A DNA stretch of 57,897 nucleotides, from positions 1 to 57,897 of IMG/VR virus record IMGVR_UViG_3300027985_001099; one strand, 5' to 3'. Under the pieces are notes generated by a model. That model saw only the letters and a list, made by a program, of their open reading frames with translations, ran no database searches and had not been told where the DNA came from. The stretch's first letter is position 1. Each line of letters starts with the position of its first letter. Of this stretch, positions 1 through 57,897 are shown one piece after another. The translations under genes and the position numbers were made by a program. This DNA comes from a virus (lineage: Duplodnaviria; Caudoviricetes).

Positions 1-144
1 CGCAATTCTAACGCTCTAGCAATGGCGTTCTGAAAAAAACCCATTAGTCACCTCAGATTTACCCTTGGGAGAACGACGTTATTCCCCACATCTCGACTGT
101 TTCCCACAGGTTGAATCCGGCTACGTCCGTAACCAGGTCTTGGC
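1..144. repeat. Terminal direct repeat, left copy (assembly overlap of a circular or circularly permuted genome)
   Basis: 1-144 is identical to 57754-57897; tail genes continue across the junction. Confidence 0.95.
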
Positions 145-7500: not shown

Positions 7501-9517
7501 CGCCGATAGATAGGATCTGGCCGCGTAAGCGCTGGAAGGTGGACATCGATTTGCGAGAGTTGTCCGCAACTAGGTTCAAGGCTTCGGCGAGTTTACGTGA
7601 CCGTTCCGCCGCTTGGCCTGTTGGGGTATTCAGCTCGGCGGTTTTTCGCGCCAGGCGGTCTATGGCCGAAGCTTCGGCGCGATAGGTGGACGTTAGCTGT
7701 CGGCCCTGGCTATTCAGGAAGCTCGCCCGTAAGGACAGCAGGTTTTGCGCTGCCACCAGGTCCTTTGTGTCTACGCCGGCGGCATTGAGCGCGGCTTCCA
7801 ACTGCTTGAGCGCAGTGCGCTCCTGCTCAAGGTTCCGGCGGGACAAAACCGCAGCGCCTACGAGTCGCTCGTGGTTCGCCACAGCCTCTGCGGCAGGGGC
7901 GTTTGTAGCCTTCAGCGCTTCGCTGGATTCCTTTAGCGCCGTTCGGTAGGCCGCCATTTCGGCGCGGGCTTTAGCCACGGATTCCTGCTGCTGCCGGAAC
8001 GAATTGATCGCCGCGCTGGCCGACCGTATCCCGGAGAGCTCCGTCTTAACCGCCGCTATCGCGCCTGACAGCTGGCGCAAGTGCTGCTCGTTTACCTCTG
8101 CGCTTGCGCCCAAGGCGTTAAGGTCCTGAAGGGCCTTGTTGACGTTGGCCTCATCGACTACGGGGAGGGTGAACGCGGCGGTACTGCCGGTGTCCTTGGC
8201 CTTCGATAGCTGGTTTAGTACCTTCTGCCGGGCGGTAAGCTTGGCGATACTTGCGGCGGTCTGGTCCAACTCGGACTTCAGCTTGGCCTCGGCCACCGCC
8301 AGGTCCTGGGTGTCCACCCCGGCCTGCTTCAGCTCGGTGGCCATCGTGGCTAAGGCCTGGCGCTGGCGTTCCGCCGCAGCTATGGCTTTAGCCCCATCCT
8401 TCTCAGCCTGTACTTCGCTTTTCCGGGCCTCTTTCACCAGCTGTAGCTGAGCGGCTTGGGCGGCTTGCTGTTTTTTAAGCTCGGCGAGTTGCGCCGCTTG
8501 GACCTGCTTTAACGACTCCATCGTCGCTTGCGCGATCTTCGCTTCGTCACTGACTTTGGCAAGGGCACTGGCGTTCTGAGAAGCAGCCGCTGTTGCTTCC
8601 TTGTGCGCCTTTTGGGCCAGCTCCAGTTTTTGCGTTAGCTTGGCAACCTCGTTTTGTGCCTTGGTTACCTGCTGTGCCACTGCGGGGCTTGCCGCCGGGT
8701 TTGCCATGGCTACTTGAGCGTTTTGCAGCCGCTCCTGTGCGGTGGCCAGCTCCTTCTGTGTTTTAGCTACGGCAGTACCTGCCCGGTCCAATTCCTGAGC
8801 CATTGATGCTGTTGGCTTGGCTACGCCAGCCATAGCGGTCTTCGCCCGCTCAAGCCGGGTTTCGGACTCCGCCAGTTGCGTGGTTAGCTTGCTGACGGCA
8901 CTCTCTGCCCAGCCGAGTTCCTGGGCCATCGCCTTAGTCGGCGCTGCGGTACCGCTAAGCCCGGACTTCACAGCTTCAAGGGTTTTCTGCGCCTCATCAA
9001 GCCGAGCAGACCATTTCTCGATCCGGGTCTGCGCAGACGCGATGGCCGTCTCGTGGGCCTGCCCATCCTGCTTGGTCTTATTCAAGGCGGTGTTCAGCCC
9101 AGAAACGACCTTGGCTTGTTCGTTAACTGCGGCATTCGAGGCGGCGGCTGACTCGGCGGCTCTTTTGGTGGCCTGGGCCAGCGCATCCTGCTGAGCAACC
9201 AGAGCGGCGGTCTTTGTTTGGTAATCCGCCAGGGAGGTGCCGGCTGCGGATACCTCAGCCTCTAGTCGGGAGAGCTCGTCCCGTGCCGCCTTGACGGTCG
9301 CGGCGGCCTTAGTGGTGCTGCCCAGGCCCTTCAATGCGTCCTTGAGATCGGACATCTGACGTCCGATCTGCGACATTGCCGACCCGGTTTGCTGCGACTT
9401 ATCGATGACTTTACCCTGGGCATCAACAAAATACCCAAGGGCGTCGGATACCGCCTTTATGGAGCTGCTCGCCTTATCCTTGGCAGACAGCACCATTTCC
9501 ACATTCGACTTAGCCAC
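4562..9517 (-). CDS. Tape measure protein
   Basis: 1651 aa, Ala-rich coiled coil, QMISKGKITAEDFREQLAER tape-measure motif, C-terminal HSGG/YHTGG-EVPAVLQRGEEVL. Confidence 0.95.
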   Translation of the reverse strand: MAKSNVEMVLSAKDKASSSIKAVSDALGYFVDAQGKVIDKSQQTGSAMSQIGRQMSDLKDALKGLGSTTKAAATVKAARDELSRLEAEVSAAGTSLADYQTKTAALVAQQDALAQATKRAAESAAASNAAVNEQAKVVSGLNTALNKTKQDGQAHETAIASAQTRIEKWSARLDEAQKTLEAVKSGLSGTAAPTKAMAQELGWAESAVSKLTTQLAESETRLERAKTAMAGVAKPTASMAQELDRAGTAVAKTQKELATAQERLQNAQVAMANPAASPAVAQQVTKAQNEVAKLTQKLELAQKAHKEATAAASQNASALAKVSDEAKIAQATMESLKQVQAAQLAELKKQQAAQAAQLQLVKEARKSEVQAEKDGAKAIAAAERQRQALATMATELKQAGVDTQDLAVAEAKLKSELDQTAASIAKLTARQKVLNQLSKAKDTGSTAAFTLPVVDEANVNKALQDLNALGASAEVNEQHLRQLSGAIAAVKTELSGIRSASAAINSFRQQQESVAKARAEMAAYRTALKESSEALKATNAPAAEAVANHERLVGAAVLSRRNLEQERTALKQLEAALNAAGVDTKDLVAAQNLLSLRASFLNSQGRQLTSTYRAEASAIDRLARKTAELNTPTGQAAERSRKLAEALNLVADNSRKSMSTFQRLRGQILSIGAAYIGLYGAVEQFKKAYASTVKLQSVQNRVEFVNNGDLVQSKRDMELLRVTAKALGFDFENLADSYATFLGNAKGSALEGDPARGMFLNFSLGAKAMKLDSESIKGSLRAISQMISKGKITAEDFREQLAERFPAATARLAKALKDKGLIKAIEDLPDFMQNVGISTKALIPFLMDLGNETHDAAIKSADALDSWASRAKNVLDQMRREFMEGGPSEALKSAFRDLEQAMQDPAIQNGMRHLSELVASLIQGAMWLVRHIQLVGAVAKTVFWFGFSRYVIGLVRDLFTLIAKVRQFGDAWKAAISGVGAFGRGMALLGGPIGLTLTGLTLLTAALIGIKAYFNSAGVQAAEFAGKISDLTERINDLSAAEIAKASRDSAKATVDYEKQLSDKDKEIRELRRRQALVNEDQVFNVPDFSAPGGVRKVSAKGQYGDKDAINDQLIDAEAERAGLERTLKRIEALQRLLDQRKQGGTVDNRSPEQIEMDRLRKEYEKAMLEAANGSMTGTSGKDRAAAIAARLDDEMSKVKAKIDELNAQAITDIVQSVDAQLDAVEGQVAAKYEKLIRDLTKAGRTADVALVQELIKIETSATKAEVKAKAAAKAEKAVNDLFATRKDLIDALLIAEKQTGPEAEANAADLRDRLAEVNDQLRYAIEQAILLAEKTGNLKLANDMRAAQTDLPNAENRARLEAARKDIDRQMSLRNNLKQQLQYEQSSDAIGATGLVGVENLKKQIKELDDQLQPTIISARTLAESLGNKEAVAEYNLMLANLHEITPAMRMAAEAAEAFASGAANALVDMADQLGQVLVGAKSLSEGFKGAMQAFAQFAADFLRQIAMMILQAIVLKSLQSSNAFGGLFNAAVKHSGGMVESGPKRAMPSALYANALRYHTGGVVGLKPNEVPAVLQRGEEVLTKDDPRHRQNGGLGGESQPPQVSLKIVNTIDSGEFISQGLSTVIGEQAFLNFFRSRRSTINSMLGRK

Positions 9518-9830: not shown

Positions 9831-10195
9831 GCAGTTTCTAGGTCCTTAAAGGTCAGTTCCGCGATCGCTATCAGCGCTTCAGCCTGGGTGTGGATTGGCA
9901 GTCTCGCTACGGTTTGCCAAGCGTCCGGCTCGTCTGCGGCGAGGGCGATCGCTTTCACCGCAGCCAGAAACGCCTGTTTAAGCATGGCCGTAGCCACCTG
10001 TTCGTTGCCGACCATCAGGTCGGCGTGTTCCTCGTTGTCCACGGCTGCGCCGAAAGCGTCAAAGGCGGCTTCCAACTCTCCGAAGTGCTCTTGCACGAGT
10101 ACGTCGATGTCCGCCAAGGACAAGCCCCGCACCTGAAACTCTCCGCCTTCGGTCTGGATACGCTTCGTCGGGATCACAATGTCTTTGAGTGCCAT
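9758..10195 (-). CDS. Tail assembly chaperone G
   Basis: Between tail tube and TMP genes; VRGLSLADI motif; contains slippery site. Confidence 0.85.
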   Translation of the reverse strand: MALKDIVIPTKRIQTEGGEFQVRGLSLADIDVLVQEHFGELEAAFDAFGAAVDNEEHADLMVGNEQVATAMLKQAFLAAVKAIALAADEPDAWQTVARLPIHTQAEALIAIAELTFKDLETAGKLAGMMPNITRAVTTGLVSMQG

Positions 10196-10240
10196 GTTAT
10201 CTCCTATGGGGGCGCCATTAGACGCCCATCATAGTCTGGG

Positions 10241-11014
10241 TTAGGCCGGTCGGCCGTCGATGTACACCGCCTCGGTGGCATCGTTCAGTTTCAACACCTC
10301 GAGCTTGAAGCTGATCTTGGTCCAGTCGTCACCTTTGAGCGCATACTCGCCGTTCGGGGTCAGCAACACATACGGCAGGTAAAAATCCTGCTGCAGGCCT
10401 TTGGCGTTCTTGGAGACAAAACGCGCAGCACCGGCGATCTGGTTGTTGGACGAAATGACCCGGGTCCGCGAATTCGCTGCGGGGGTGTAATCGGCCAGCA
10501 GAACGGTATCGTCGGCGATACCACCACCTGGGACGATGTAGATGGTGCCCAGGGCGGCATCGAGGACGTAGTCAACGTCGACGGTGTACGTGGTCGGAAC
10601 CGCATCTTTGATGGCGACGGCGGACACGCCACGGACCCCGGGCGGGTTCGCCGCAGTGGCGCCCAGCTGATAGTACAGGCCCTGCTTAACCCCGATACCG
10701 CCATTCAGAGACTCCCCGACAACAGGCGTCGCCGTCTGGGTCACCGTTGACGTCTCGCCCAGGAAAAACAGGGCCAGGTTTTCGAAATCGATGTTGTCCG
10801 AGGTGACCGTACCTGAGCGGTTTACCGCCAGTTGCACGGTATCGTCTTTCTGTTTCAGACCATTATCTGTATCATAATGGTCCAGCGTTTCTGACTCAGA
10901 CCCGATATTTACTTCGATGGTGTTTCCCAGGTACCGTTCGCCGGTTTTGTTGGTCGTGCCGGTGACGAATTTGTCAAAGCGGAACTTTCCGCTACCCAAT
11001 ACGTAGTTTGCCAT
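10241..11014 (-). CDS. Major tail tube protein
   Basis: NYVLGSGK...ERYLGN...LTPNGEYALKGDDW motifs of Chi-like tail tube proteins; position. Confidence 0.85.
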   Translation of the reverse strand: MANYVLGSGKFRFDKFVTGTTNKTGERYLGNTIEVNIGSESETLDHYDTDNGLKQKDDTVQLAVNRSGTVTSDNIDFENLALFFLGETSTVTQTATPVVGESLNGGIGVKQGLYYQLGATAANPPGVRGVSAVAIKDAVPTTYTVDVDYVLDAALGTIYIVPGGGIADDTVLLADYTPAANSRTRVISSNNQIAGAARFVSKNAKGLQQDFYLPYVLLTPNGEYALKGDDWTKISFKLEVLKLNDATEAVYIDGRPA

Positions 11015-22943: not shown

Positions 22944-23384
22944 TTAGTTATCGAACTGCACTGACAGGTTCGCCGCCTGGAATACCGGTGCCGAGTCACC
23001 ATTGTTGATGGTTTTTGGCACCGTCAGGGCCCCGTAGATGAGCTCGTTACCGCCACTGGAGGCGTCCATTATGGCAAAGTGGGTGACCAGGCCCCAGTCG
23101 GCGGTCGGGGCCGGAAACGTAATGGGGTTGTTGTTCGATGTGGTGCCGCTGGTACCGGTCGACGCTGTGGTGGACCCTGCCGCCTGGGTACCTGCCCAGT
23201 TTGCCAGGGAGCAGGTAATCGCAACTCGGGCGTAGGACCCACCGGAAACCTCAGTACCACCGCCCGCGTCGGCCGGCGCCGAGGTAAACAGGGCGACATA
23301 CACGGTAGCCGGCGGAGTAAACGCCTGGCCACGGAGCATCCAGTCGATCAGTTTGTTTTCTACGTAGTCTGAAAAAGCGGACAT
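22944..23384 (-). CDS. Putative fibre subunit
   Basis: MSAFSDYVENK...VYVALFT...EVSGGSYARV...ITFP.PTADWG..THFAI.DA.SGGN, a widespread phage fibre-like family. Confidence 0.65.
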   Translation of the reverse strand: MSAFSDYVENKLIDWMLRGQAFTPPATVYVALFTSAPADAGGGTEVSGGSYARVAITCSLANWAGTQAAGSTTASTGTSGTTSNNNPITFPAPTADWGLVTHFAIMDASSGGNELIYGALTVPKTINNGDSAPVFQAANLSVQFDN

Positions 23385-23456
23385 GTTGTGTTCCCTCACG
23401 TTTCAGGCCCATCCTGGGCCATTAGGTGCCATTTTACGCCAGCATACCGGCGTTGG

Positions 23457-30525: not shown

Positions 30526-33099
30526 ATGGATGTGTTACGCGCCGCACTGGAGTACGCGGGGGCTGGGATCGCGGCCCATTGGCTTCAGCCGAAATCAAAA
30601 CTACCTATCGGACAGGGCTGGTCCACGCGACCAACCGCCAGCCTTCAGGAACTGCAAGACACATACCGAAAGGGTAATAACCTGGGGGTCCGCCCCGGCA
30701 AGTTCAGCAAGGTCGGTGACCGATATCTAGTGGTAATCGACCTTGATATTCGTATCGATAGCCACCGGGATATTGCCCTGGCCAAGCTTTCCGAGCTGTT
30801 CCCGTTTCACTCCGACTTACCGACTATTCAATCCGGTTCAGGAGGCCACAGCCGACACTTCTGGATCCTGCTTCCGGTACCGGTTAACTCGCAGATGCTG
30901 GCCCACTCTGACGTCGAGTACACCGGGGACGACGGGCACGTTCACTTTGCCTGGGAGATAGAGGCCTACGGGACAGGTAAGCAAACTGCGGTACCCCCGT
31001 CCATCCACCCCGCGTCCGGAAAAGAGTACATCTGGCTGGCAAACCGGCCCGAGTTTGACTTGGGGATCTGGCCTGAGGCCTGTCTAGTTGACACGCTGCC
31101 CTGTCTTGCCGTTGACGGCTGGGACGACATGTTCGAAGACTCTGGCAACGACTTCGACTTTGTCTATCACTTGAAGCAGCCGTTACCGATCAGCGACGAA
31201 CAAGTCGCCCAGTGCCTTGACACATACCGGGCGGATGGTCTGCACTACAACGACTGGCTTCGGGTCGGCCAGGCTTTGCACCATCAGTACCGCGGAGACG
31301 ACACCGGATTTCAGCTCTGGCTGAACTGGTCCGAACAGTCATCAAAACACGACGACTCACAAATGGCTTACCGCTGGGACAGTTTCGGGCGGTACCAAGG
31401 CGGCCACGGCCCCGTGACCATGTACTCGATCCTGAAGCTGGCCGGCATGGACCCAAAGGCCATACAACGGATCGAGTTGCTGCACAGGTTCATGGTCAAG
31501 ATAAATGAAGTCTCTGATATGGGCGCTATGACCTCACTCCAAGGCGAAATCAGCAAGATACCATTTACCGAGCTCAACGAGGGGGAGCGATCCATTTTGG
31601 CTGGCGTGATGCGTACTCAGATGGCCGCGGTGTTGGGAAAGGGCGTCCAACCCCCAACCCGGGCCGAGATTAAAAAGCAGATCATGCCGACTAAAGCCGG
31701 CCTGGCCGACCAGGCGGCCGACATGGAGGTCCCCGGCTGGATGAAACCTTGGGTCTACGTGACCGCCGATGAGGTATTCTTCCATCGGGGCACCGGTGAA
31801 CGGATCAGCGAACGGGCGTTTAACGCCCTGTACGACGCCGAAGCCGGAAAGTTATTTTCCTACAATGACACCGGCCTCCTGACTGCGGTACACGCCGCAG
31901 AAGCCGCGCTAAACATATTCCAGATCAAAAAGCCGTATCAGACCATGTACTGGCCGGGGCGGAAATCCGTGTTTACCGACGACGGCAAGCTCTACGCAAA
32001 CAGTTACCGCGACACCGGCCCCAAGGCGGACCAGGACACCGGCAGCCGGCGCGGTGTTGAGCTAATGATGATCCACCTGCGAAACCTGTTCCCGAGCCAG
32101 AAGCACCGGGAGCTGGTGCTCGATTTCCTGGCGCACATCGTACAGCACCCCGGAAAGAAACTGCTTTACGCGATACTCATTAAGGGCGTCCAGGGGGACG
32201 GAAAAACCTGGATGCTGGAAATGCTTCAGTCCGTGCTCGGCCGGACGAACACCACTTTGATAAAAAGCGCCCATCTCCGCAAGGAGTTCAACGGCTACTG
32301 CGAGCATTCGATCCTGTGCGGGATCGAGGAAATAAAACAACACAACGCAGATGCCCTGGATGTCCTAAACAACATGAAGGACATGATCACAAACCGGACA
32401 CTACCGGTAGAGCGTAAAGGCGTCGACATCAGCAAGATCAGAAATTTCGCGAACTTCTTCCTGACCACGAATTACTCCGACGCCCTGCCCATAACTAATG
32501 ACGATAACCGATACGCAGTACTGTTCACCCGGTTCGCCACGTCGGATGATGTCGACGACTGGGCCTCCGACTGGGCTAAGAGCTCCGGGTACGAATTCTT
32601 TCCGGCGCTATATGACGAGGTTCAGAGTAACCCCTATCAGTTCCGAGAGTTCTTCGAACAGTACAAATTCAGTGACCAGTACGCCCCGAATCGTCGGGCG
32701 CCACATACCGGGTTCGCTCGGATCATGGAGGTGGCCTCGCGCTCCGAGGCCGAGATGTTGTTGCTGGATATCGTCGATAAAGGCCAAAACCCGGCGCTAT
32801 CGCGAAAGTGTTTTGACTGGGGTAGGTTCAAAACCAAGCTTGACGCCCTAGACCCGGAAAACCGTATCCACGGGCGCTCAGTGTCAACCCTAATGGGTAA
32901 GCTCGGATTCTTCGTTGCGGACCCTGACCGGGTTTGCCACAACGGCGGCAAGTACCGGATATGGACATCTGACCGGTCGTTATTCGATGACCAAATGGCG
33001 CTAACTGCCGCGGGCCTGCAGACAATCAAAACCCTGCTAAGCCAGCAGGAGGCCCAGGATCGCGGCGGGTTTGAGGATAACGTTGAGTCCCTGAGATAG
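30526..33099 (+). CDS. Primase-helicase (Prim-Pol + PriCT-2 + SF3-like ATPase)
   Basis: NLGVR...VIDLD, SGSGG..H, PPSIHP, YNDWLRVGQALH, GVQGDGKT and LTTN motifs. Confidence 0.92.
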   Translation: MDVLRAALEYAGAGIAAHWLQPKSKLPIGQGWSTRPTASLQELQDTYRKGNNLGVRPGKFSKVGDRYLVVIDLDIRIDSHRDIALAKLSELFPFHSDLPTIQSGSGGHSRHFWILLPVPVNSQMLAHSDVEYTGDDGHVHFAWEIEAYGTGKQTAVPPSIHPASGKEYIWLANRPEFDLGIWPEACLVDTLPCLAVDGWDDMFEDSGNDFDFVYHLKQPLPISDEQVAQCLDTYRADGLHYNDWLRVGQALHHQYRGDDTGFQLWLNWSEQSSKHDDSQMAYRWDSFGRYQGGHGPVTMYSILKLAGMDPKAIQRIELLHRFMVKINEVSDMGAMTSLQGEISKIPFTELNEGERSILAGVMRTQMAAVLGKGVQPPTRAEIKKQIMPTKAGLADQAADMEVPGWMKPWVYVTADEVFFHRGTGERISERAFNALYDAEAGKLFSYNDTGLLTAVHAAEAALNIFQIKKPYQTMYWPGRKSVFTDDGKLYANSYRDTGPKADQDTGSRRGVELMMIHLRNLFPSQKHRELVLDFLAHIVQHPGKKLLYAILIKGVQGDGKTWMLEMLQSVLGRTNTTLIKSAHLRKEFNGYCEHSILCGIEEIKQHNADALDVLNNMKDMITNRTLPVERKGVDISKIRNFANFFLTTNYSDALPITNDDNRYAVLFTRFATSDDVDDWASDWAKSSGYEFFPALYDEVQSNPYQFREFFEQYKFSDQYAPNRRAPHTGFARIMEVASRSEAEMLLLDIVDKGQNPALSRKCFDWGRFKTKLDALDPENRIHGRSVSTLMGKLGFFVADPDRVCHNGGKYRIWTSDRSLFDDQMALTAAGLQTIKTLLSQQEAQDRGGFEDNVESLR

Positions 33100-48136: not shown

Positions 48137-48185
48137 CCTGGATCAACATAGAGCCACTTGGCTCATAGTTGGGGTTGCGCGCCTC

Positions 48186-48215
48186 TTGACCATAGTCAGA
48201 TGGGCAGCGTAATCT
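48186..48215 (+). promoter_or_regulatory. Candidate rep promoter
   Basis: TTGACC-N18-TAATCT about 240 nt upstream of rep, giving a long leader. Confidence 0.5.
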
Positions 48216-48228
48216 GGATTGAAGAAAT

Positions 48229-48258
48229 GAAAAAGGCCCCCCAATTGGGAGGCCTTTC
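48229..48258 (-). terminator. Terminator of the antisense RNA
   Basis: Minus strand GGCCUCCC-AAUU-GGGGGGCC-UUUUU (pairs fully, with one G-U, only on this strand). Confidence 0.7.
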
Positions 48259-48327
48259 TAGGCCAAGGTGGATTGCCGTCCCTCTTGGCCAGGTAGCGGA
48301 ACCGTGCGGGGAACAGCTACAAAGTCC
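48229..48327 (-). ncRNA. Candidate antisense copy-number control RNA (ColE2 RNAI-like, about 100 nt)
   Basis: Bounded by a minus-strand promoter and minus-strand terminator, fully complementary to the rep leader. Confidence 0.6.
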
Positions 48328-48333
48328 AGTTTC

Positions 48334-48362
48334 AGTCTATATAAGCACCGCGTAGGCTGCAA
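48334..48362 (-). promoter_or_regulatory. Antisense RNA promoter
   Basis: TTGCAG-N17-TAGACT on the minus strand. Confidence 0.6.
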
Positions 48363-48457
48363 CAAAATTCCATCCCTCGCTCAGTTTCGGCACATACCGA
48401 GGCTAAACCCGGCATCGTCGGGCCGCATAGCCTCGTACCCGAGCGAGGAACCGGGAC

Positions 48458-49441
48458 ATGGAATGCCGCTGTGCGCCGCATGGGCGCGATCAATTTATTG
48501 ACCGGTTACCCCGCCGGCCGTACTGCACCGATGACCCCGCTAGCGGGTTGGACATTCGGCCAAAACACACGGCGCTACGGTACCGGCACATCCAGCCAAA
48601 CCCACCCGCCCATGTGTCCTGCCTGGTTTTCGATATCGATCGGGATAACGGGTATTACGCCTGGAAAGATACCGGGCTACCCGAGCCGCATTGGGCGTCT
48701 GTCAATCGCAAAAATGGCCATGCGCACATCGGGTACCTGCTCGCCACGCCGGTTGTCCGCACCAATGCCGCCCGGCTGGCGCCGCTACGGTACCTAGCGG
48801 CCATTGAGTGGGTCTTGAAGCGTAGGCTTGGCGCAGACATGGGGTACGTTGGCCTCATATCAAAGAATCCCGTCCACGACGATTGGCTAACCGTATGGGC
48901 CCCCCTAGACCCGTACACTCTGGATTACCTGGCCGAGTTCTGTCCGGACTGCGAGCTGGCCGAATATGCGCAAAGGCCGAAACGCGAACACGCCGGGCTC
49001 GGGCGAAACGTTGAGCTGTTCGACAGCGTCCGGGGATGGGCATATACCGCCGTCAGAGCGTACTGGAGACCAGACGGGTATGGAGCTTGGGCAGACGCTG
49101 TGCTTGATGCCTGCCGACAGGCTAACGCCTATGGCGCCGACGTAGGGGGGCCGTTACCCGTTAACGAGGTGCGGGCCACGGCCAAGAGCATTGCGAAATG
49201 GGTCTGGCACAGGTTCACGCCGGCCGGGTTTAGCGAGGTACAAGCTAAGCGGGGGGCTAAGGGCGGTAGGGTGTCGAAACGGCCAACCCGCAGCGGAAAG
49301 ACTATGGGCGAGCTGCTGCCTGAGGTCCACCGGCTCAAGGCTTCCGGCAGCAGCACCCAGGACATAGCCGATCAGCTCAACATCAGCACCGGATCCGTCA
49401 AGCGGTACCTGCGGCAGCCTAGCGATCAAGTGGATCAATAA
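48458..49441 (+). CDS. rep: ColE2-type plasmid replication initiator (Replicase + PriCT-1 + C-terminal HTH)
   Basis: LPRRPYCTDD, HIQPN, FDIDR, N..NGHAH, D.GY.GLISKNP, GLGRN.ELFD, AKSIAKW, FSEVQAKRGAKGG and terminal HTH. Confidence 0.93.
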   Translation: MECRCAPHGRDQFIDRLPRRPYCTDDPASGLDIRPKHTALRYRHIQPNPPAHVSCLVFDIDRDNGYYAWKDTGLPEPHWASVNRKNGHAHIGYLLATPVVRTNAARLAPLRYLAAIEWVLKRRLGADMGYVGLISKNPVHDDWLTVWAPLDPYTLDYLAEFCPDCELAEYAQRPKREHAGLGRNVELFDSVRGWAYTAVRAYWRPDGYGAWADAVLDACRQANAYGADVGGPLPVNEVRATAKSIAKWVWHRFTPAGFSEVQAKRGAKGGRVSKRPTRSGKTMGELLPEVHRLKASGSSTQDIADQLNISTGSVKRYLRQPSDQVDQ

Positions 49442-49463
49442 GCCATATCAGATAACAGCGCCC
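49438..49463 (+). other. ori: ColE2-type replication origin
   Basis: ATAAGCCATATCAGATAACAGCGCCC overlapping the rep stop codon; matches the recalled ColE2-family origin core (TATCAGATAACAGCGCCC, containing the AGA primer site). Confidence 0.85.
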
Positions 49464-49593
49464 GAAGGGCGTGGCTTTTTATTTTAGGCCTTGTCTTAGA
49501 GAGGGGATCTGGCGAGGTGGGGAACTCCCGAACCCGGAGGGCTGTCCATCAGGCCCCGGCCTGTGGGCAGGGGAGTTGTCCACGGAGCGGGCT

Positions 49594-49980
49594 CTAGCTT
49601 TTGAGGTTTGCTATTCGCAGCTGGGCTTGCTTGATCTCGAACATTGTGTACCGATGGGTCCGCAGTGCAAACATACGCCGGGGCGGTTTTACCTCACGCC
49701 CCCGCAGTATCCCGGTTTCGCACCAGTACACCAGCTCCGATTCCCTTATCCCGATAACCGAGGCCGTATCCCTGGCGCTAAACTGCATCCGCACGTCCAG
49801 CATCAGCGTTTCCGCATCGAAGGTTCCGGCGGTCAGCTGCCCTAAAGCGTACGCCGCCAGGTCCTCTGCGGACTCCCCGTAGGTTGCCACTGAGAACTTA
49901 GTCACTTGCTTCCCGTCGAAAACGACGGCCCACTGGTTGACCGAGTTCAGGTAGATGTGGTTACACGCCTCTTTAGACAT
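49594..49980 (-). CDS. Putative DNA-binding protein (AP2-like N-part, winged HTH C-part)
   Basis: W...KFSVATYGE.A..LA, then FSARDTASVIGIRESELVYW. Confidence 0.5.
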   Translation of the reverse strand: MSKEACNHIYLNSVNQWAVVFDGKQVTKFSVATYGESAEDLAAYALGQLTAGTFDAETLMLDVRMQFSARDTASVIGIRESELVYWCETGILRGREVKPPRRMFALRTHRYTMFEIKQAQLRIANLKS

Positions 49981-50034
49981 AGAAAAAAAACCCCTTATAT
50001 ATACGTCTTACCGCCGAAAACCGCGCATTATTCC

Positions 50035-50062
50035 TTGCCAGGATGCCTCAATTGGCTATACT
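50035..50062 (+). promoter_or_regulatory. Sigma70-like promoter
   Basis: TTGCCA-N16-TATACT upstream of 50098. Confidence 0.55.
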
Positions 50063-50097: not shown

Positions 50098-50484
50098 ATG
50101 ATTGCAAGTCTTACCGAGGCCCAATTGCTTAGCTTACCCTGGGAAGTTACGGAAGTTTCCGCCACGGGGATTCGAAATCCGCACTACTGGTACAACTTCG
50201 GGGCTACCGGAAAATTCCATCTTGTGGCGAATTGCTACGGTATCCCCCTGCTGATAGTTGTCCATTGGGGGGCTAAGTCAAACCTGGTAACGCGAGACCC
50301 AATGGACAACTATCGGCTAATCGTCGATTGGTTTTGGGTAAAGGTATCGGGGTTTCAGATCGTATCCCATACGGGTACGCCGGAAGCGCTGTCCTGCGTT
50401 CCGGTTGTTATCGACAGGATATTGACGGAAAAAGTCGATTGGGAGCCTCGGGTACGGGAGTTCATAGCGTCACGTAAAGCGTAG
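50098..50484 (+). CDS. Hypothetical protein
   Basis: GAAGG RBS downstream of promoter. Confidence 0.55.
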   Translation: MIASLTEAQLLSLPWEVTEVSATGIRNPHYWYNFGATGKFHLVANCYGIPLLIVVHWGAKSNLVTRDPMDNYRLIVDWFWVKVSGFQIVSHTGTPEALSCVPVVIDRILTEKVDWEPRVREFIASRKA

Positions 50485-54110: not shown

Positions 54111-57100
54111 TCATATGGACCCGGTAGCTGATGAAATTATGACCAAGTCGCCGGCCAGGTCCTGGGCTGTTGCCGTTACCGAAGCCGCGATAGTGGCCGA
54201 GCCGGCGAGTTCGCGGTCCATGGTTACGTTGGCTGTTGCCGTTACCGAAGCCGTGACGGACGCTTGGGCTAGGATACCCGTGCTAAGCGTCCCCACGCTG
54301 TTGGCCTCCACGCTCGCGGAGGCCGGGGTCTCGTCGACAAGATACAGCGTGGCGGATGCGCTAGCTGTTGATCGCATCGGGTCAGCGGCGAGTTCATCCT
54401 CGAACAGCATAAACCCGCTGCTGGAGCCCGTAACGTACGCGGTACCGGCCAGTGAAATTTCGGTACGCAAACTGGCCTTGAGCACCTTGGCCGTAACGGT
54501 CCGGCTAGCCTTGAGGCTGATCGTAGTGGATAGCGTTCCGGCAGCAGAAGCTGAAGCCCGGAGGTCAACCAGGTTTTCATCGGTCCCGTATACCGTACCG
54601 AATACGGCGGGGGTGACGTGAACGGAAGCCATAAGGGCCGAGGTTTCCACGTACGCCTGGGCGATCTGGTAACTCTCGAGCAGGTCACGCTCCGCGGTGA
54701 TCTTGATGTTGAGCGCCACGGCTCGGTTCATCACGTTATCTGGTATCGTGACACTTGAGCCGGCAATATCTGTCGCGATGTAGGCGTCACGAACCCACCC
54801 ACTTGGGTACAGCACGTCTACCCGGCAGGTTGTCGTAACGCCCAGCTCAGATGCCGTCCCGGCGTCCTCCCACGACATCGCCTGGTTAATCTCGGTAAGC
54901 CGATTACGCGTGGCCCAGGAAATCTCGACGATCGGACTAACGCTCCCCTGAGGCCATAGGACCCCGTTAACCCGCAGCCCAGCCGGCCGATACGGCAGCG
55001 CTTGCCGGGCGTCGACGTCGTAGGATAGTACCGGGGCGTCGTCGAAGGGCAATTGCCCTAATGCGGTATTGGTGAGCATTTTGTATTTGGCGGTTTCTCC
55101 GGCGACACGTGCCGTCTGGTCGCGGGCGGGCTGGTTTGCCGTGCCGAATATCCATATCGGCGTTCCTGCTGGCCAAGACTGCGGGACGGTATCAAACAGC
55201 CCTCGCAGTATGGTATGCCCGCCGGAATCGTACTGCAGAACCTGGCATAACTCAGCTGGCGGCTGGCAGGCGGTACAGGTCAAACGGTCCAACGGCAAAG
55301 CCCAGGCGGGCAGGCCGGACGCGGCTAGGCTTTCGGCCGCCTGTTCAGGCCGTATCTTGGCGCCGCCCTGTAAGTACTCCCCGTCGACCAACTCTATGGA
55401 CAACACGGGGTCCCGGGTTAGCGCTACCGCATAGATGGTGACCGATGAAAATCCGGTATTGAGCGTCTCCCAGGATAGACCGAAATCGGATGTGAGCACG
55501 ACCGCGCCGGCACCTGATGAAACCAGTACATGGTCCCCACTGCGGCATATGGCGGCGCCATACACACTGTTGACTCCGGGTATGGTGGCGGACACCGTCC
55601 AGGTGGCGCCAAAATCCGTTGACCGGCTACAGCTTGAGCCGGATAGCGCTAAGGCAAAACTTCCATCACTAGATATCAGGGTCTTGCTAATGCTGCTGGT
55701 GCCGAAAGGCGTGTCCGCGGATAGTTGCCAAGTACTCCCCCCGTTGCTTGACGTGTAGATCTTGCCATTACCGCGCCCCATTAGCAGGTACTGGCCGTCA
55801 CCGCTAGCCGAAAGGGACTTGACCGGAGAGGTGTCTCCGATCTGAACAGCGCTGCCCCATGTTGCGCCACCATCGGTTGAGATGGCCACCCGGCCATCGT
55901 TAGACCCCAGCACCGCAATGGCGCCGTCGTCAGATATGGCAACTGAGGTTATGTTTACGCCCCCGAATGGGTTAGACACCAATGACCCCCAGGTGCTGCC
56001 TTGGTCCGTCGACCGGGCTAGCTTCGTCGACCCAGCGGCTATCGCGAACGCGCCGCCCGAGTCCATGGCCACCAACTGTACCGCTGTGGTGCCGAATGGC
56101 GTAGTGGGCAGAGTCCAGTCCACTCCGCCGTTGCTGGACACGCCTATTTTGCCGTTGTACGCCACCGCGATTATTAGCGACCCGTCAAGGGTCACTGTTG
56201 CGGCGTACACTGCGGTTGTTAGGCCCGTAGTTTTCTGGGGGCCCCACGTAGCCCCTAGGTCGTCAGACCTGATGGCTTTGCCCCCGCCGCTGATCACTAT
56301 CAGGCTGGCGTTTATCGCGGATAGCGCCGCGTCGAGACGGGGTGCGGAACCGGCGTATTCGCTTAGGTACGGGGCAAGGCAGTGCATCGGCCAGGTTGCG
56401 TCTGCAGCCAAGTAGTGCCCGTAGATGTCAATGGCTGACACAGGTACCGTGAACCCGCCGGGATCCTGGGCAACCGGACCGGTAGCCTCGAGTACCTCAG
56501 CCAGGTACCGCCCGTCGGTAAGCGTTGTTCCCCCACCGATAACAAGCAGGTCTCCCGCCAGGACGGTGCGTACGCCAACGACAGCGCCTACGGTAAGCGT
56601 GCTGGCTGACTCTACGGATAAACCGGCCCCAAGCAGGGCGTATAGGCTGGGCGAGAAGTTTCCCAGGGAAAAGTACCCCGGGGTGCCAAACTCGTCCGCC
56701 CCCTCTACGGCGAGCTCGTACCCAGAGCAACTAGCCTGGTCGGTCGCGCCGGCGAGTATCACATACTCGTTTTCTGGGGCCAAGGCGGCGGCAACGTCCT
56801 CACCCTTCCATGCGGCAAGCAAGACGAACGGGGCGCTGAGCACCAAGGTGTACCCCATCGGTAAGGGGGCCTCATCACCGCTGCGCCACAGGCTCTGCTG
56901 GGGTATGAAATAGCTACCCATGCAGGATGAGTAAACGTCCTCAAGCAAAGTTAGCTGCACCGGCATGGCCGACGGCTTTCCGTAGGATACTTCGCCGACA
57001 CGCATGACCACGTCGGTGAAGCCCAGGTCAGGGCGGGAAAATTTGACTACGTCACCCGGCATAAGGTACGCAAACTGGCGTTTTGCCTTAACGTTCGCGC

Positions 57101-57797
57101 CAAGTAGTGGTGTGACTGAGGTTTTCAGCTCACGCATGGCAACTCGGGCGGCTAGCGCCGGATTCCGGATCCCGGGGAACTCTTTAGGGCTGCTCACGAT
57201 GGCACCCTGGGCAGATATGTTGGCGTTATCGTGGACCGATATGGTCTCGGTTTCTTCGTTGTCCGGATTTGTCCAGGATAATACAATCTCGTTCACGACC
57301 TCCGCCGTGCTCCGCCGTTGGATATTGTCCACAGAGCAATTGGATAAATTCAGCTCGGGTAAGTTATCGATGTCATAGTCGTTGCGCAGTAGTTTTAGTC
57401 GCAACTTTCCTGTCAACGGGTTTGGGCTAAGGGTTGCCGCGATATGATTGAGCACCCCGTTGATGAAATCCTCAATAGTCGCCTGCTGCACCCACATTAT
57501 GGACATGCCGAAGGACTCGGAAAAAAGCGTATCCGCAGCCGCCTTAAACGAGTCGAGGTCCAGCTTGGCTGCCGGCAGTTGCATCCCCCAATCGGTATGC
57601 GTCAGGCATTCATGAATTATGTGCGCCGGGTTGGCGTCGAGGCCCCCTATTTGGGATTTTGACCGGTACCACTGGCGGGGTATGCGCCTCACAGTAACCC
57701 AGATGTCTTTTAGATACGGGCTATTTGTGGACCAGTAAAAACCGCGCTCATCACGCAATTCTAACGCTCTAGCAATGGCGTTCTGAAAAAAACCCAT
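54111..57797 (-). CDS. Tail tip protein, C-terminal half, with inserted Asp-box propeller and Ala/Ser/Thr-rich repeat tail
   Basis: NSPYLK, DANPAHII.ECLT..DWG, LKLLRNDY, RGLFDTVP and RQALPYRPA motifs; multiple S.D.G.TW boxes; own GAGGTG RBS. Confidence 0.85.
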   Translation of the reverse strand: MGFFQNAIARALELRDERGFYWSTNSPYLKDIWVTVRRIPRQWYRSKSQIGGLDANPAHIIHECLTHTDWGMQLPAAKLDLDSFKAAADTLFSESFGMSIMWVQQATIEDFINGVLNHIAATLSPNPLTGKLRLKLLRNDYDIDNLPELNLSNCSVDNIQRRSTAEVVNEIVLSWTNPDNEETETISVHDNANISAQGAIVSSPKEFPGIRNPALAARVAMRELKTSVTPLLGANVKAKRQFAYLMPGDVVKFSRPDLGFTDVVMRVGEVSYGKPSAMPVQLTLLEDVYSSCMGSYFIPQQSLWRSGDEAPLPMGYTLVLSAPFVLLAAWKGEDVAAALAPENEYVILAGATDQASCSGYELAVEGADEFGTPGYFSLGNFSPSLYALLGAGLSVESASTLTVGAVVGVRTVLAGDLLVIGGGTTLTDGRYLAEVLEATGPVAQDPGGFTVPVSAIDIYGHYLAADATWPMHCLAPYLSEYAGSAPRLDAALSAINASLIVISGGGKAIRSDDLGATWGPQKTTGLTTAVYAATVTLDGSLIIAVAYNGKIGVSSNGGVDWTLPTTPFGTTAVQLVAMDSGGAFAIAAGSTKLARSTDQGSTWGSLVSNPFGGVNITSVAISDDGAIAVLGSNDGRVAISTDGGATWGSAVQIGDTSPVKSLSASGDGQYLLMGRGNGKIYTSSNGGSTWQLSADTPFGTSSISKTLISSDGSFALALSGSSCSRSTDFGATWTVSATIPGVNSVYGAAICRSGDHVLVSSGAGAVVLTSDFGLSWETLNTGFSSVTIYAVALTRDPVLSIELVDGEYLQGGAKIRPEQAAESLAASGLPAWALPLDRLTCTACQPPAELCQVLQYDSGGHTILRGLFDTVPQSWPAGTPIWIFGTANQPARDQTARVAGETAKYKMLTNTALGQLPFDDAPVLSYDVDARQALPYRPAGLRVNGVLWPQGSVSPIVEISWATRNRLTEINQAMSWEDAGTASELGVTTTCRVDVLYPSGWVRDAYIATDIAGSSVTIPDNVMNRAVALNIKITAERDLLESYQIAQAYVETSALMASVHVTPAVFGTVYGTDENLVDLRASASAAGTLSTTISLKASRTVTAKVLKASLRTEISLAGTAYVTGSSSGFMLFEDELAADPMRSTASASATLYLVDETPASASVEANSVGTLSTGILAQASVTASVTATANVTMDRELAGSATIAASVTATAQDLAGDLVIISSATGSI

Positions 57798-57897
57798 TAG
57801 TCACCTCAGATTTACCCTTGGGAGAACGACGTTATTCCCCACATCTCGACTGTTTCCCACAGGTTGAATCCGGCTACGTCCGTAACCAGGTCTTGGC
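57754..57897. repeat. Terminal direct repeat, right copy
   Basis: Identical to 1-144. Confidence 0.95.

Follow-up and report, generated by a model that had tools for sequence, protein, structure and literature searches.

Plasmids of the ColE2 family, among them ColE2-P9 and ColE3-CA38, use a class C theta mechanism that is described as pairing a Rep primase with DNA polymerase I (PMC4538821). The family is reported to carry a 32-bp origin (ori) downstream of rep and to be controlled by RNAI (PMC6856555), an antisense RNA complementary to the 5′ untranslated region (UTR) of the rep mRNA (PMC6856555, PMC5304414), with AGA given as its primer sequence (PMC5304414). Replicons of plasmid type are also carried by phages, as in the phage-plasmid groups P1, N15, and SSU5 (Pfeifer et al. 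2021, PMC7969092). Here we describe a replicon of the ColE2 type in an uncultured tailed phage represented by IMG/VR virus record IMGVR_UViG_3300027985_001099, the whole of which (57,897 bases) was analyzed and is referred to below as the window. The region from 48186 to 49591 is best explained as a discrete, intact minimal ColE2, or class C theta, replicon (Table 1), and its assignment to the Aeromonas subtype of ColE2-type minimal replicons, with rep and ori in the family arrangement, is secure. As originally predicted, it sits in an accessory arm, among small unannotated genes of the phage genome. We give a probability of about 0.5 to the reading that the module is replication competent, is kept by selection in the phage, and serves it as a second, plasmid-style origin.

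The rep frame is uninterrupted over 327 amino acids (aa), and residues 33 to 160 of the product match Pfam PF03090 (Replicase, the ColE2 Rep family) with 122.6 bits against a cut-off of 26 (E = 1.5e-35). The catalytic motifs of archaeo-eukaryotic primases (AEPs) are defined as hhhDhD (motif I), sxH (motif II), and hD (motif III) (PMC5862659). In an alignment of 17 Reps spanning Aeromonas-type, enterobacterial, and betaproteobacterial sequences, F58, D59, D61, and D127, which belong to these motifs, are invariant and H90 is nearly so. The strings VFDIDR, GHAH, and GAD all fall on invariant or nearly invariant columns, with FDIDR at residues 58 to 62 and GHAH at residues 87 to 90. The claim of intact primase motifs in a frame free of frameshifts was thus upheld. 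As for the PriCT and helix-turn-helix (HTH) motifs claimed alongside them, PriCT_1 (17.9 bits against 21.1) and HTH models such as GerE (21.6 bits against 23.5) stayed below their Pfam cut-offs, but residues 181 to 277 align with the solved DNA-binding domain of ColE2 Rep (PDB 3VW4, E = 2.6e-18). Taken together, the frame encodes a full-length ColE2-family Rep in which both the catalytic motifs and a C-terminal domain of the origin-binding type are present.

The closest described systems are small ColE2-type plasmids of Aeromonas (pAsa3 [NC_004924], pAhD4-3, pWP9-W18-ESBL-04_2, and pAER-0ed9), whose Reps are 65 to 70% identical to that of the window over residues 13 to 320 and have the same domain order, including an extra LuxR-type HTH tail. 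In these plasmids, as in the window, the ori core overlaps or abuts the rep stop, a terminator hairpin occupies the right half of ori, and the same conserved hairpin follows 60 to 70 nucleotides (nt) downstream. The Aeromonas plasmids measure 4 to 17 kb, whereas the window module resides in a 57.8-kb phage genome; its leader and control region is unrelated to theirs, its ori has an A in place of T or TA, its Rep lies on a long branch outside the sampled diversity and differs in codon usage, and it has no mob, toxin-antitoxin, or "RepB" neighbors. ColE2-P9 and ColE3-CA38 likewise encode an AEP primase with a PriCT-1/HTH DNA-binding part and have a minimal ori just 3′ of rep that is reported to contain AGA (PMC6856555, PMC5304414), but the window Rep is only 42 to 45% identical to the two enterobacterial Reps compared.

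The TAA stop of rep (49439 to 49441) lies inside the origin string, exactly as the original prediction had it, and the arrangement proved to be that of the family: a core of AAGCC-x-TATCAGATAACAGCGCC directly follows rep in all eight ColE2-type plasmid loci compared, of which six are from Aeromonas, one is from E. coli, and one is from a Shigella colicin plasmid. At position x, six of these loci have T and two have TA, whereas the window has A, and the window origin is otherwise that of four Aeromonas plasmids, differing by a single T-to-A change. The 23-mer containing the core occurs once in the window (none expected in 100 shuffles). The exact A-variant 23-mer was recovered from seven stretches of a species-genome collection, six of which carry beside it a matching Rep, complete or partial and 43 to 68% identical to that of the window; the seventh is a 620-base contig holding only a 44-residue piece of Rep. 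Because the same 23-mer recurs beside matching Reps in other genomes, the A variant is evidently not a private defect. An exact-match search of IMG/VR with the 17-mer ori core returned nothing, although the window's own record may be left out of that search. A second ori-like site in the window (54735 to 54745, one mismatch in 11) does not extend to the 23-mer and was judged to be due to chance.

Plasmid-homologous, conserved noncoding sequence runs past the origin to about 49591. The module end first reported, 49463, was therefore too short and missed the hairpin that lies downstream of ori. This element is present in the window and in 10 copies from nine Aeromonas-type loci, whereas the E. 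coli and Shigella loci gave no hit in a motif search. The hairpin comprises 26 pairs, and 97.2% of cells are paired in the alignment of the 11 sequences. Six of the 26 pairs have changes on both sides, compared with 1.0 ± 0.8 in shuffles (none of 500 reaching six) and 0 to 3 in slid controls, and the window's own copy has compensatory changes, its pairing being kept through double changes. G-U pairing is conserved at two positions, in 11 of 11 sequences at one and in 10 of 11 at the other, and the structure therefore belongs to the plus strand. As the AGA primer reads in the plus-strand sense, synthesis should run rightwards and displace the plus strand, on which the hairpin would be a candidate single-strand initiation site for the lagging strand. 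Single-strand initiation sites in ColE2 were reportedly the subject of work by Nomura et al. in 1991.

Table 1. Features of the ColE2-type replicon, in window coordinates
Feature	Positions	Strand	Basis
Candidate rep promoter, TTGACC (48186-48191)-18 nt-TAATCT (48210-48215), weak	48186-48215	+	8/12 consensus positions
Candidate antisense control RNA, ~100 nt, three stem-loops, the last an intrinsic terminator (48259 to 48230) followed by a T run	48228-48331	-	Fold, terminator, Rfam
Shine-Dalgarno-like GAGGAA, 7-8 nt before the rep ATG	48445-48450	+	Read from sequence
rep, ColE2-family primase-initiator, 327 aa (AEP primase domain, PriCT-1-like region, C-terminal HTH)	48458-49441	+	Profile, structure-domain, and alignment matches
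ColE2-type origin core overlapping the rep stop; AGA (family primer sequence) at 49450-49452	49438-49463	+	Plasmid comparison
Terminator-like hairpin and T run, overlapping the right end of ori	49458-49482	+	Terminator scan; hairpin at same position in plasmid loci
Conserved noncoding element with long hairpin (49512-49588); candidate lagging-strand (single-strand) initiation site	49498-49591	+	Alignment, covariation; function inferred

Upstream of rep, the resemblance to plasmids ceases. The 270-nt leader could not be aligned with plasmid leaders and had no blastn match in 72,556 plasmids, and the rep promoter that had been proposed is weak and does not appear in the output of a sigma-70 scan, which yielded no site on either strand between 47900 and 49700; the claim that all cis elements had been kept appears overstated for this part of the module. 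The minus strand of the leader nevertheless has features that fit the antisense control of rep known in the family. Its terminator is strong, with a 13-pair stem followed by TTTTT, and the region folds with -49.5 kcal/mol (z = -3.9), a stability equaled by none of 200 shuffles. Matches of this strand to Rfam were below the gathering thresholds (35.4 bits against 47 for the full RNAI model, RF00106, and 29.7 against 50 for ctRNA_p42d), and at those thresholds Rfam had no match anywhere in the window. A possible promoter for the RNA (TTGTTG-16 nt-TATATA, 48365 to 48338), found by eye, is weak. In ColE2-P9 and ColE3-CA38 the antisense RNA is described as acting on the rep 5′ UTR (PMC6856555), whereas in the window such control is proposed from these features.

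The Rep sequence appears to have been under constraint. Of 101 columns with a conservation of 97% or more among 96 relatives, 98 are unchanged in the window Rep, as against 28 to 68% of the more variable classes; the other three have changed from T to S, N to D, and R to K. This is the pattern of purifying selection. In PLSDB, 3,061 plasmid records match Rep, and the best 30 are all Aeromonas plasmids of 4.6 to 17 kb with 65 to 70% identity. A collection of 5.8 billion proteins gave 1,984 relatives at E ≤ 0.001, the best 68% identical, and Aeromonas accounts for nearly all named proteins among the best 120. A quick maximum-likelihood tree of 60 rows (the window, eight plasmid loci, three loci whose origin has the A variant, and 48 proteins from the list of 120, after removal of 24 outside 300 to 345 aa and of every second one of the other 96) places the window Rep in a clade of Aeromonas-type Reps with 98% support, at its unresolved base. 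The branch leading to it measures 0.94 against a median of 0.067, a length at which the tree tool regards placement as unsure, and two other proteins of the clade (P0105 and P0111) form a similarly long branch. The phylogeny that had been suggested for inferring a donor thus points to Aeromonas-type Reps, at an identity of at most 68 to 70%. The accompanying statement that such replicons normally drive small multicopy plasmids is correct in part: 1,032 of the 3,061 matching records are typed as conjugative, and Pseudomonas PFP replicons are cited as ColE2 relatives (PMC5304414).

In its synonymous codons rep fits the genes of the phage, whereas the usage seen in six Aeromonas plasmid reps is rejected: the observed log-ratio of +0.045 per codon compares with 0.064 ± 0.019 for simulated phage usage and -0.065 ± 0.020 for simulated plasmid-rep usage, for which none of 2,000 draws reached the observed value, and the six plasmid reps themselves range from -0.006 to -0.070. 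GC content and GC content at third codon positions were discarded as discriminators, as neither separated the phage from Aeromonas plasmids. Either rep has long been resident in the phage, or in a host with the codon habits of the phage, or the donor lineage is unsampled; the data fit both. Similarity to plasmids ends within a few bases of the hairpin, and the flanks of the module hold neither mob genes nor other remnants of a small plasmid. Aeromonas-type ColE2 Rep, ori, and hairpin sequences were also seen in a 7,121-bp contig filed under a Candidatus Moraniibacteriota metagenome-assembled genome, with two or three inverted rep copies, and in two contigs of a Desulfobulbus assembly whose names give a coverage near 1; all three look like small-plasmid contigs that were misbinned or carried over into unrelated genome records.

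The genome that carries the module is that of a complete tailed phage by the measures of IMG/VR, where it is classed as having direct terminal repeats and where CheckV completeness is 100%. It encodes a lambda-type TerL, a portal, a protease, a major head protein, and tail proteins, together with an Rz-like spanin for lysis. The replication genes comprise a family A DNA polymerase (PolA), a helicase, an exonuclease, an Enc34-type single-stranded DNA-binding protein (PF10991, E = 7e-33), and an 857-aa Prim-Pol/PriCT-2/DUF5906 primase (open reading frame [ORF] 30526 to 33099, plus strand). Two AEP-type primases of different families, this one and the ColE2 Rep, are therefore encoded in one genome. 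Among 50,697 GenBank phages, the best TerL matches were those of Achromobacter AchV4, Synechococcus S-ESS1, Klebsiella N133, Ruegeria DSS3-P1, and Burkholderia BcepNazgul, with 48 to 53% identity, and because of these matches we classify the phage, from its predicted proteins, as a Chi-like siphophage of the ~58- to 60-kb type, which has TerL and replication proteins in common with phages of the Chi, Nazgul, and Enc34 types. The family name would presumably be Casjensviridae, and the Chi-like backbone is of a type known only as virulent. The first and last 144 bases of the window (1 to 144 and 57754 to 57897) are identical, but this repeat lies within the tail module, and the tail ORFs on either side of it (59 to 1900 and 54111 to 57797, both minus strand) adjoin across the overlap, each matching the part of PHROG 1101 next to that matched by the other. 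What was classed as a direct terminal repeat is thus more likely an overlap from assembly of a circle than a pair of physical genome ends, and the record would be a circular map of ~57,753 unique bases whose physical ends lie elsewhere.

Like the P1, N15, and SSU5 phage-plasmids, the window combines virion, lysis, and packaging genes with a plasmid-type replicon on one DNA molecule. Unlike them, it has a Chi-like backbone with its own PolA, helicase, and primase, and the replicon is of the ColE2 type. Nor were maintenance genes detected: six-frame searches of the window found no tyrosine integrase, resolvase, ParB (ParB_N), or AAA_31-type ParA, and Pfam and PHROG scans revealed no recognizable repressor family among the ORFs examined, of which many small ones had no assignment.

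Among phages, the combination of a ColE2 replicon with a tailed-phage genome that has DNA-copying genes of its own is, by these sequence surveys, rare. Searches of the 50,697 GenBank phage records by tblastn with three queries (the Reps of the window, of contig L019, and of a Shigella plasmid) found no full-length Rep relative, and the partial matches, in four records, covered at most 35%. The DNA of the module had no match in GenBank phages, and no PHROG family matched the primase domain of Rep. In IMG/VR, a profile-based scan that was not exhaustive, being confined to two peptide patterns, found six contigs (L017 to L022) with PF03090 Reps that are just 37 to 43% identical to that of the window. 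As in the window, an ori-like TATCAGAT core lies at or within ~90 nt of the rep stop in all six, on the opposite strand in L019. Two of the contigs bear virion genes: L019 (33 kb) encodes TerL, a portal, and a major head protein, and L018, which encodes a tail fiber, is part of a 49.9-kb provirus with an integrase. The other four are short (8 to 16 kb) and may be plasmids filed as viruses. None of the six has any other gene in common with the window phage. In L019, a lambda O-like initiator gene (8033 to 8809) lies just upstream of the ColE2-family rep (9923 to 10879), with the ori-like core ~80 nt after rep, so that L019 is another phage with two initiator types. Single-protein scans with Rep, PhoH, and a 1,228-aa tail protein found no close relative of the window phage in IMG/VR, and a metagenome scan with PhoH gave a single match of 35% identity that has nothing else in common with the window. 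In literature searches at the level of titles and abstracts, no paper was found that ties a ColE2-type replicon to a phage.

Several observations concern the surroundings of the module, which is enclosed by small genes without family matches. A 128-aa ORF (49594 to 49980, minus strand) is convergent with rep, its end lying 3 bases beyond the conserved hairpin. Neither Pfam nor PHROG gave a match for it, but it is 33% identical to genes of large conjugative plasmids annotated as hypothetical, "AP2 domain," or "TrfB-related DNA-binding," with 36 of the 83 matching records from Aeromonas. Its product may be a regulator, and the matches offer a second hint at an Aeromonas-like host. We excluded this ORF from the captured block, as its kin lie on large Aeromonas and enterobacterial plasmids and not on ColE2-type ones. 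Beyond it, a good sigma-70-like promoter (TTGCCA-16 nt-TATACT, 50034 to 50061, plus strand), identified by eye in the divergent intergenic region before ORF 50098 to 50484, suggests that a separate transcription unit begins directly after the replicon block. Elsewhere in the genome, a 151-aa protein (22944 to 23399, minus strand) matches Pfam PF23140 ("Podophage GP4 fiber I protein gp80") with E = 5e-50, although its gene is oddly placed for a fiber protein, with the helicase gene on one side and, on the other, two unassigned ORFs next to the packaging genes.

We consider the module likely to be replication competent, given the apparent constraint on rep, on the origin, and on the hairpin. The working model with the most support is that of the family, in which Rep binds and opens the origin and makes a short primer that a Pol I-type polymerase extends (PMC4538821). 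Under the reading given even odds above, the replicon would have been gained by recombination and would now be resident in the circular map of a Chi-like siphophage. Once the phage DNA circularizes, Rep would bind the single origin at its own stop codon and open it, then make a very short RNA primer at AGA. A polymerase of the Pol I type, either that of the host or possibly phage PolA, would extend this primer rightwards, and the displaced plus strand would expose the hairpin ~60 nt downstream as an entry site for lagging-strand priming. Meanwhile, the ~100-nt antisense RNA from the leader could throttle the supply of Rep. To the phage, the module might offer an auxiliary early theta origin or persistence as a plasmid-like episome. 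The analysis shows what rep, ori, and the hairpin are, that they are intact, and that they lie in a phage, whereas we infer the priming step, the choice of polymerase, the role of the hairpin, the antisense control, and the benefit to the phage; the same holds for the idea that phage PolA extends the Rep primer.

A bolder version of this proposal, which we find rather unlikely, is that a phage of virulent type has domesticated the ColE2 replicon as a working second system, so that its circularized genome can be copied, and perhaps carried for generations, as a theta plasmid primed by Rep and extended by Pol I or PolA, with neither lysogeny nor a partition module.

Several points weigh against the module serving as a second origin. 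The phage has a full replication set (PolA, helicase, single-stranded DNA-binding protein, exonuclease, and Prim-Pol primase), which the original prediction left out of account, and the need for another origin is not obvious. No close relative of the phage was found in the scans described above. The promoters for rep and for the candidate antisense RNA are weak, the leader has no homologue among the plasmids searched, and the origin has A where plasmids have T or TA, which may affect binding of Rep at the predicted origin. The searches for repressor, integrase, and partition genes, which could have underpinned stable carriage, found none. If the module had been captured fairly recently, from a plasmid of the same host that has escaped sampling, it would likewise be intact and have phage-like codons. 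The earlier argument that the module is functional rather than a decayed capture is plausible, and the 98 conserved Rep columns, the compensatory changes in the hairpin, and the phage-like codons are stronger evidence for it than the presence of all parts, but a passenger from a plasmid lineage not yet sampled could be intact as well.

That passenger is the main rival, and we regard it as a real possibility. It supposes that the replicon of a ColE2-type plasmid in the host recombined into a variable early region of the phage, where it is neutral or mildly costly and of no use, its intactness reflecting recency or selection before capture. In the collections searched the phage stands alone, with no phage lineage to attest persistence of the module; it has its own replisome; and the module lies in a stretch of small genes that match no family, a setting in which phages tolerate insertions. 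Unsampled donors are also conceivable, given the other, similarly long branch in the same Rep clade. A simple passenger is harder to reconcile with the lack of plasmid remnants beyond the functional parts, with rep codons that fit the phage and not known Aeromonas plasmid reps, and with the failure to find anything above 68 to 70% identity among the 1,984 relatives or the 72,556 plasmids. Tailed phages with packaging limits, moreover, tend to lose useless DNA.

A third explanation, which seems to us improbable, is that the module is a tool of interference, in which the phage ori, Rep, or antisense RNA disturbs resident ColE2-type plasmids or borrows their Rep. A resident Rep could, for example, be titrated onto many phage-borne origins, or the phage ori could be fired by the Rep of a resident plasmid. 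In ColE2 replicons, both the control region and the origin are reported to determine incompatibility (PMC5304414), and common Aeromonas plasmids have almost the same ori core as the window. The leader and antisense region is unlike plasmid leaders, however, which makes cross-control by RNA unlikely, and titration would not need a full and constrained rep. The ori of the window also differs at the very position that varies among the plasmids compared, which we assume to be a specificity determinant in ColE2 and ColE3.

Continuity of the sequence at the edges of the module bears on whether it belongs to the phage at all. One 26,242-nt Logan contig spans 46500 to 51500 without a difference in two sequencing runs. 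The two runs hardly differ in size; they may represent a single data set and probably gave rise to the record, in which case the contig shows only the agreement of a second assembler. In a small library made separately from one of those samples, a contig (49304 to 49927) runs from rep through the origin and the hairpin into the neighboring phage ORF, and the upstream junction has no cover in that library. Both junctions are thus crossed by the Logan contig and the downstream one also by the separate library. No RNA data set was among the runs that hold the sequence. An imperfect 22-nt direct repeat (48166 to 48187 and 49952 to 49973; 18 of 22 positions, or 82%, alike) brackets the replicon together with the neighboring minus-strand ORF and has two copies only; we rejected it as an insertion scar, since by a rough estimate it is about what chance would give in 2.6 kb. 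The module is thus not an obvious assembly chimera, and plasmid reads misjoined into a phage contig are a very improbable explanation: although the record is a metagenome assembly and its only full-length holders are probably its source data, a second assembler crossed both junctions, the separate library crossed one, the edges have no repeat that could cause a false join, and the codon usage of rep matches the phage.

Hybrids of phage and plasmid are known mostly from temperate lineages with dedicated maintenance genes. In contrast, the window holds a minimal plasmid replicon of the high-copy type, apparently constrained, in a virulent-looking phage with its own replisome. If the module proves to be only a passenger, it would be a clean example of gene flow from plasmid to phage and would hint at an Aeromonas-like host bacterium. 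If it works, even phages of lytic type can borrow plasmid origins for early theta replication or plasmid-like persistence, a small and portable Rep/ori pair with a distinct origin variant would be at hand, and it could be tested whether a phage family A polymerase uses the three-nucleotide ColE2 primer. Should the replicon turn out to be domesticated as a second system, phages would have a new way of becoming phage-plasmids or entering a carrier state, and nature would provide an example in which a family A polymerase encoded by a phage is supplied by the primase-initiator of a plasmid.

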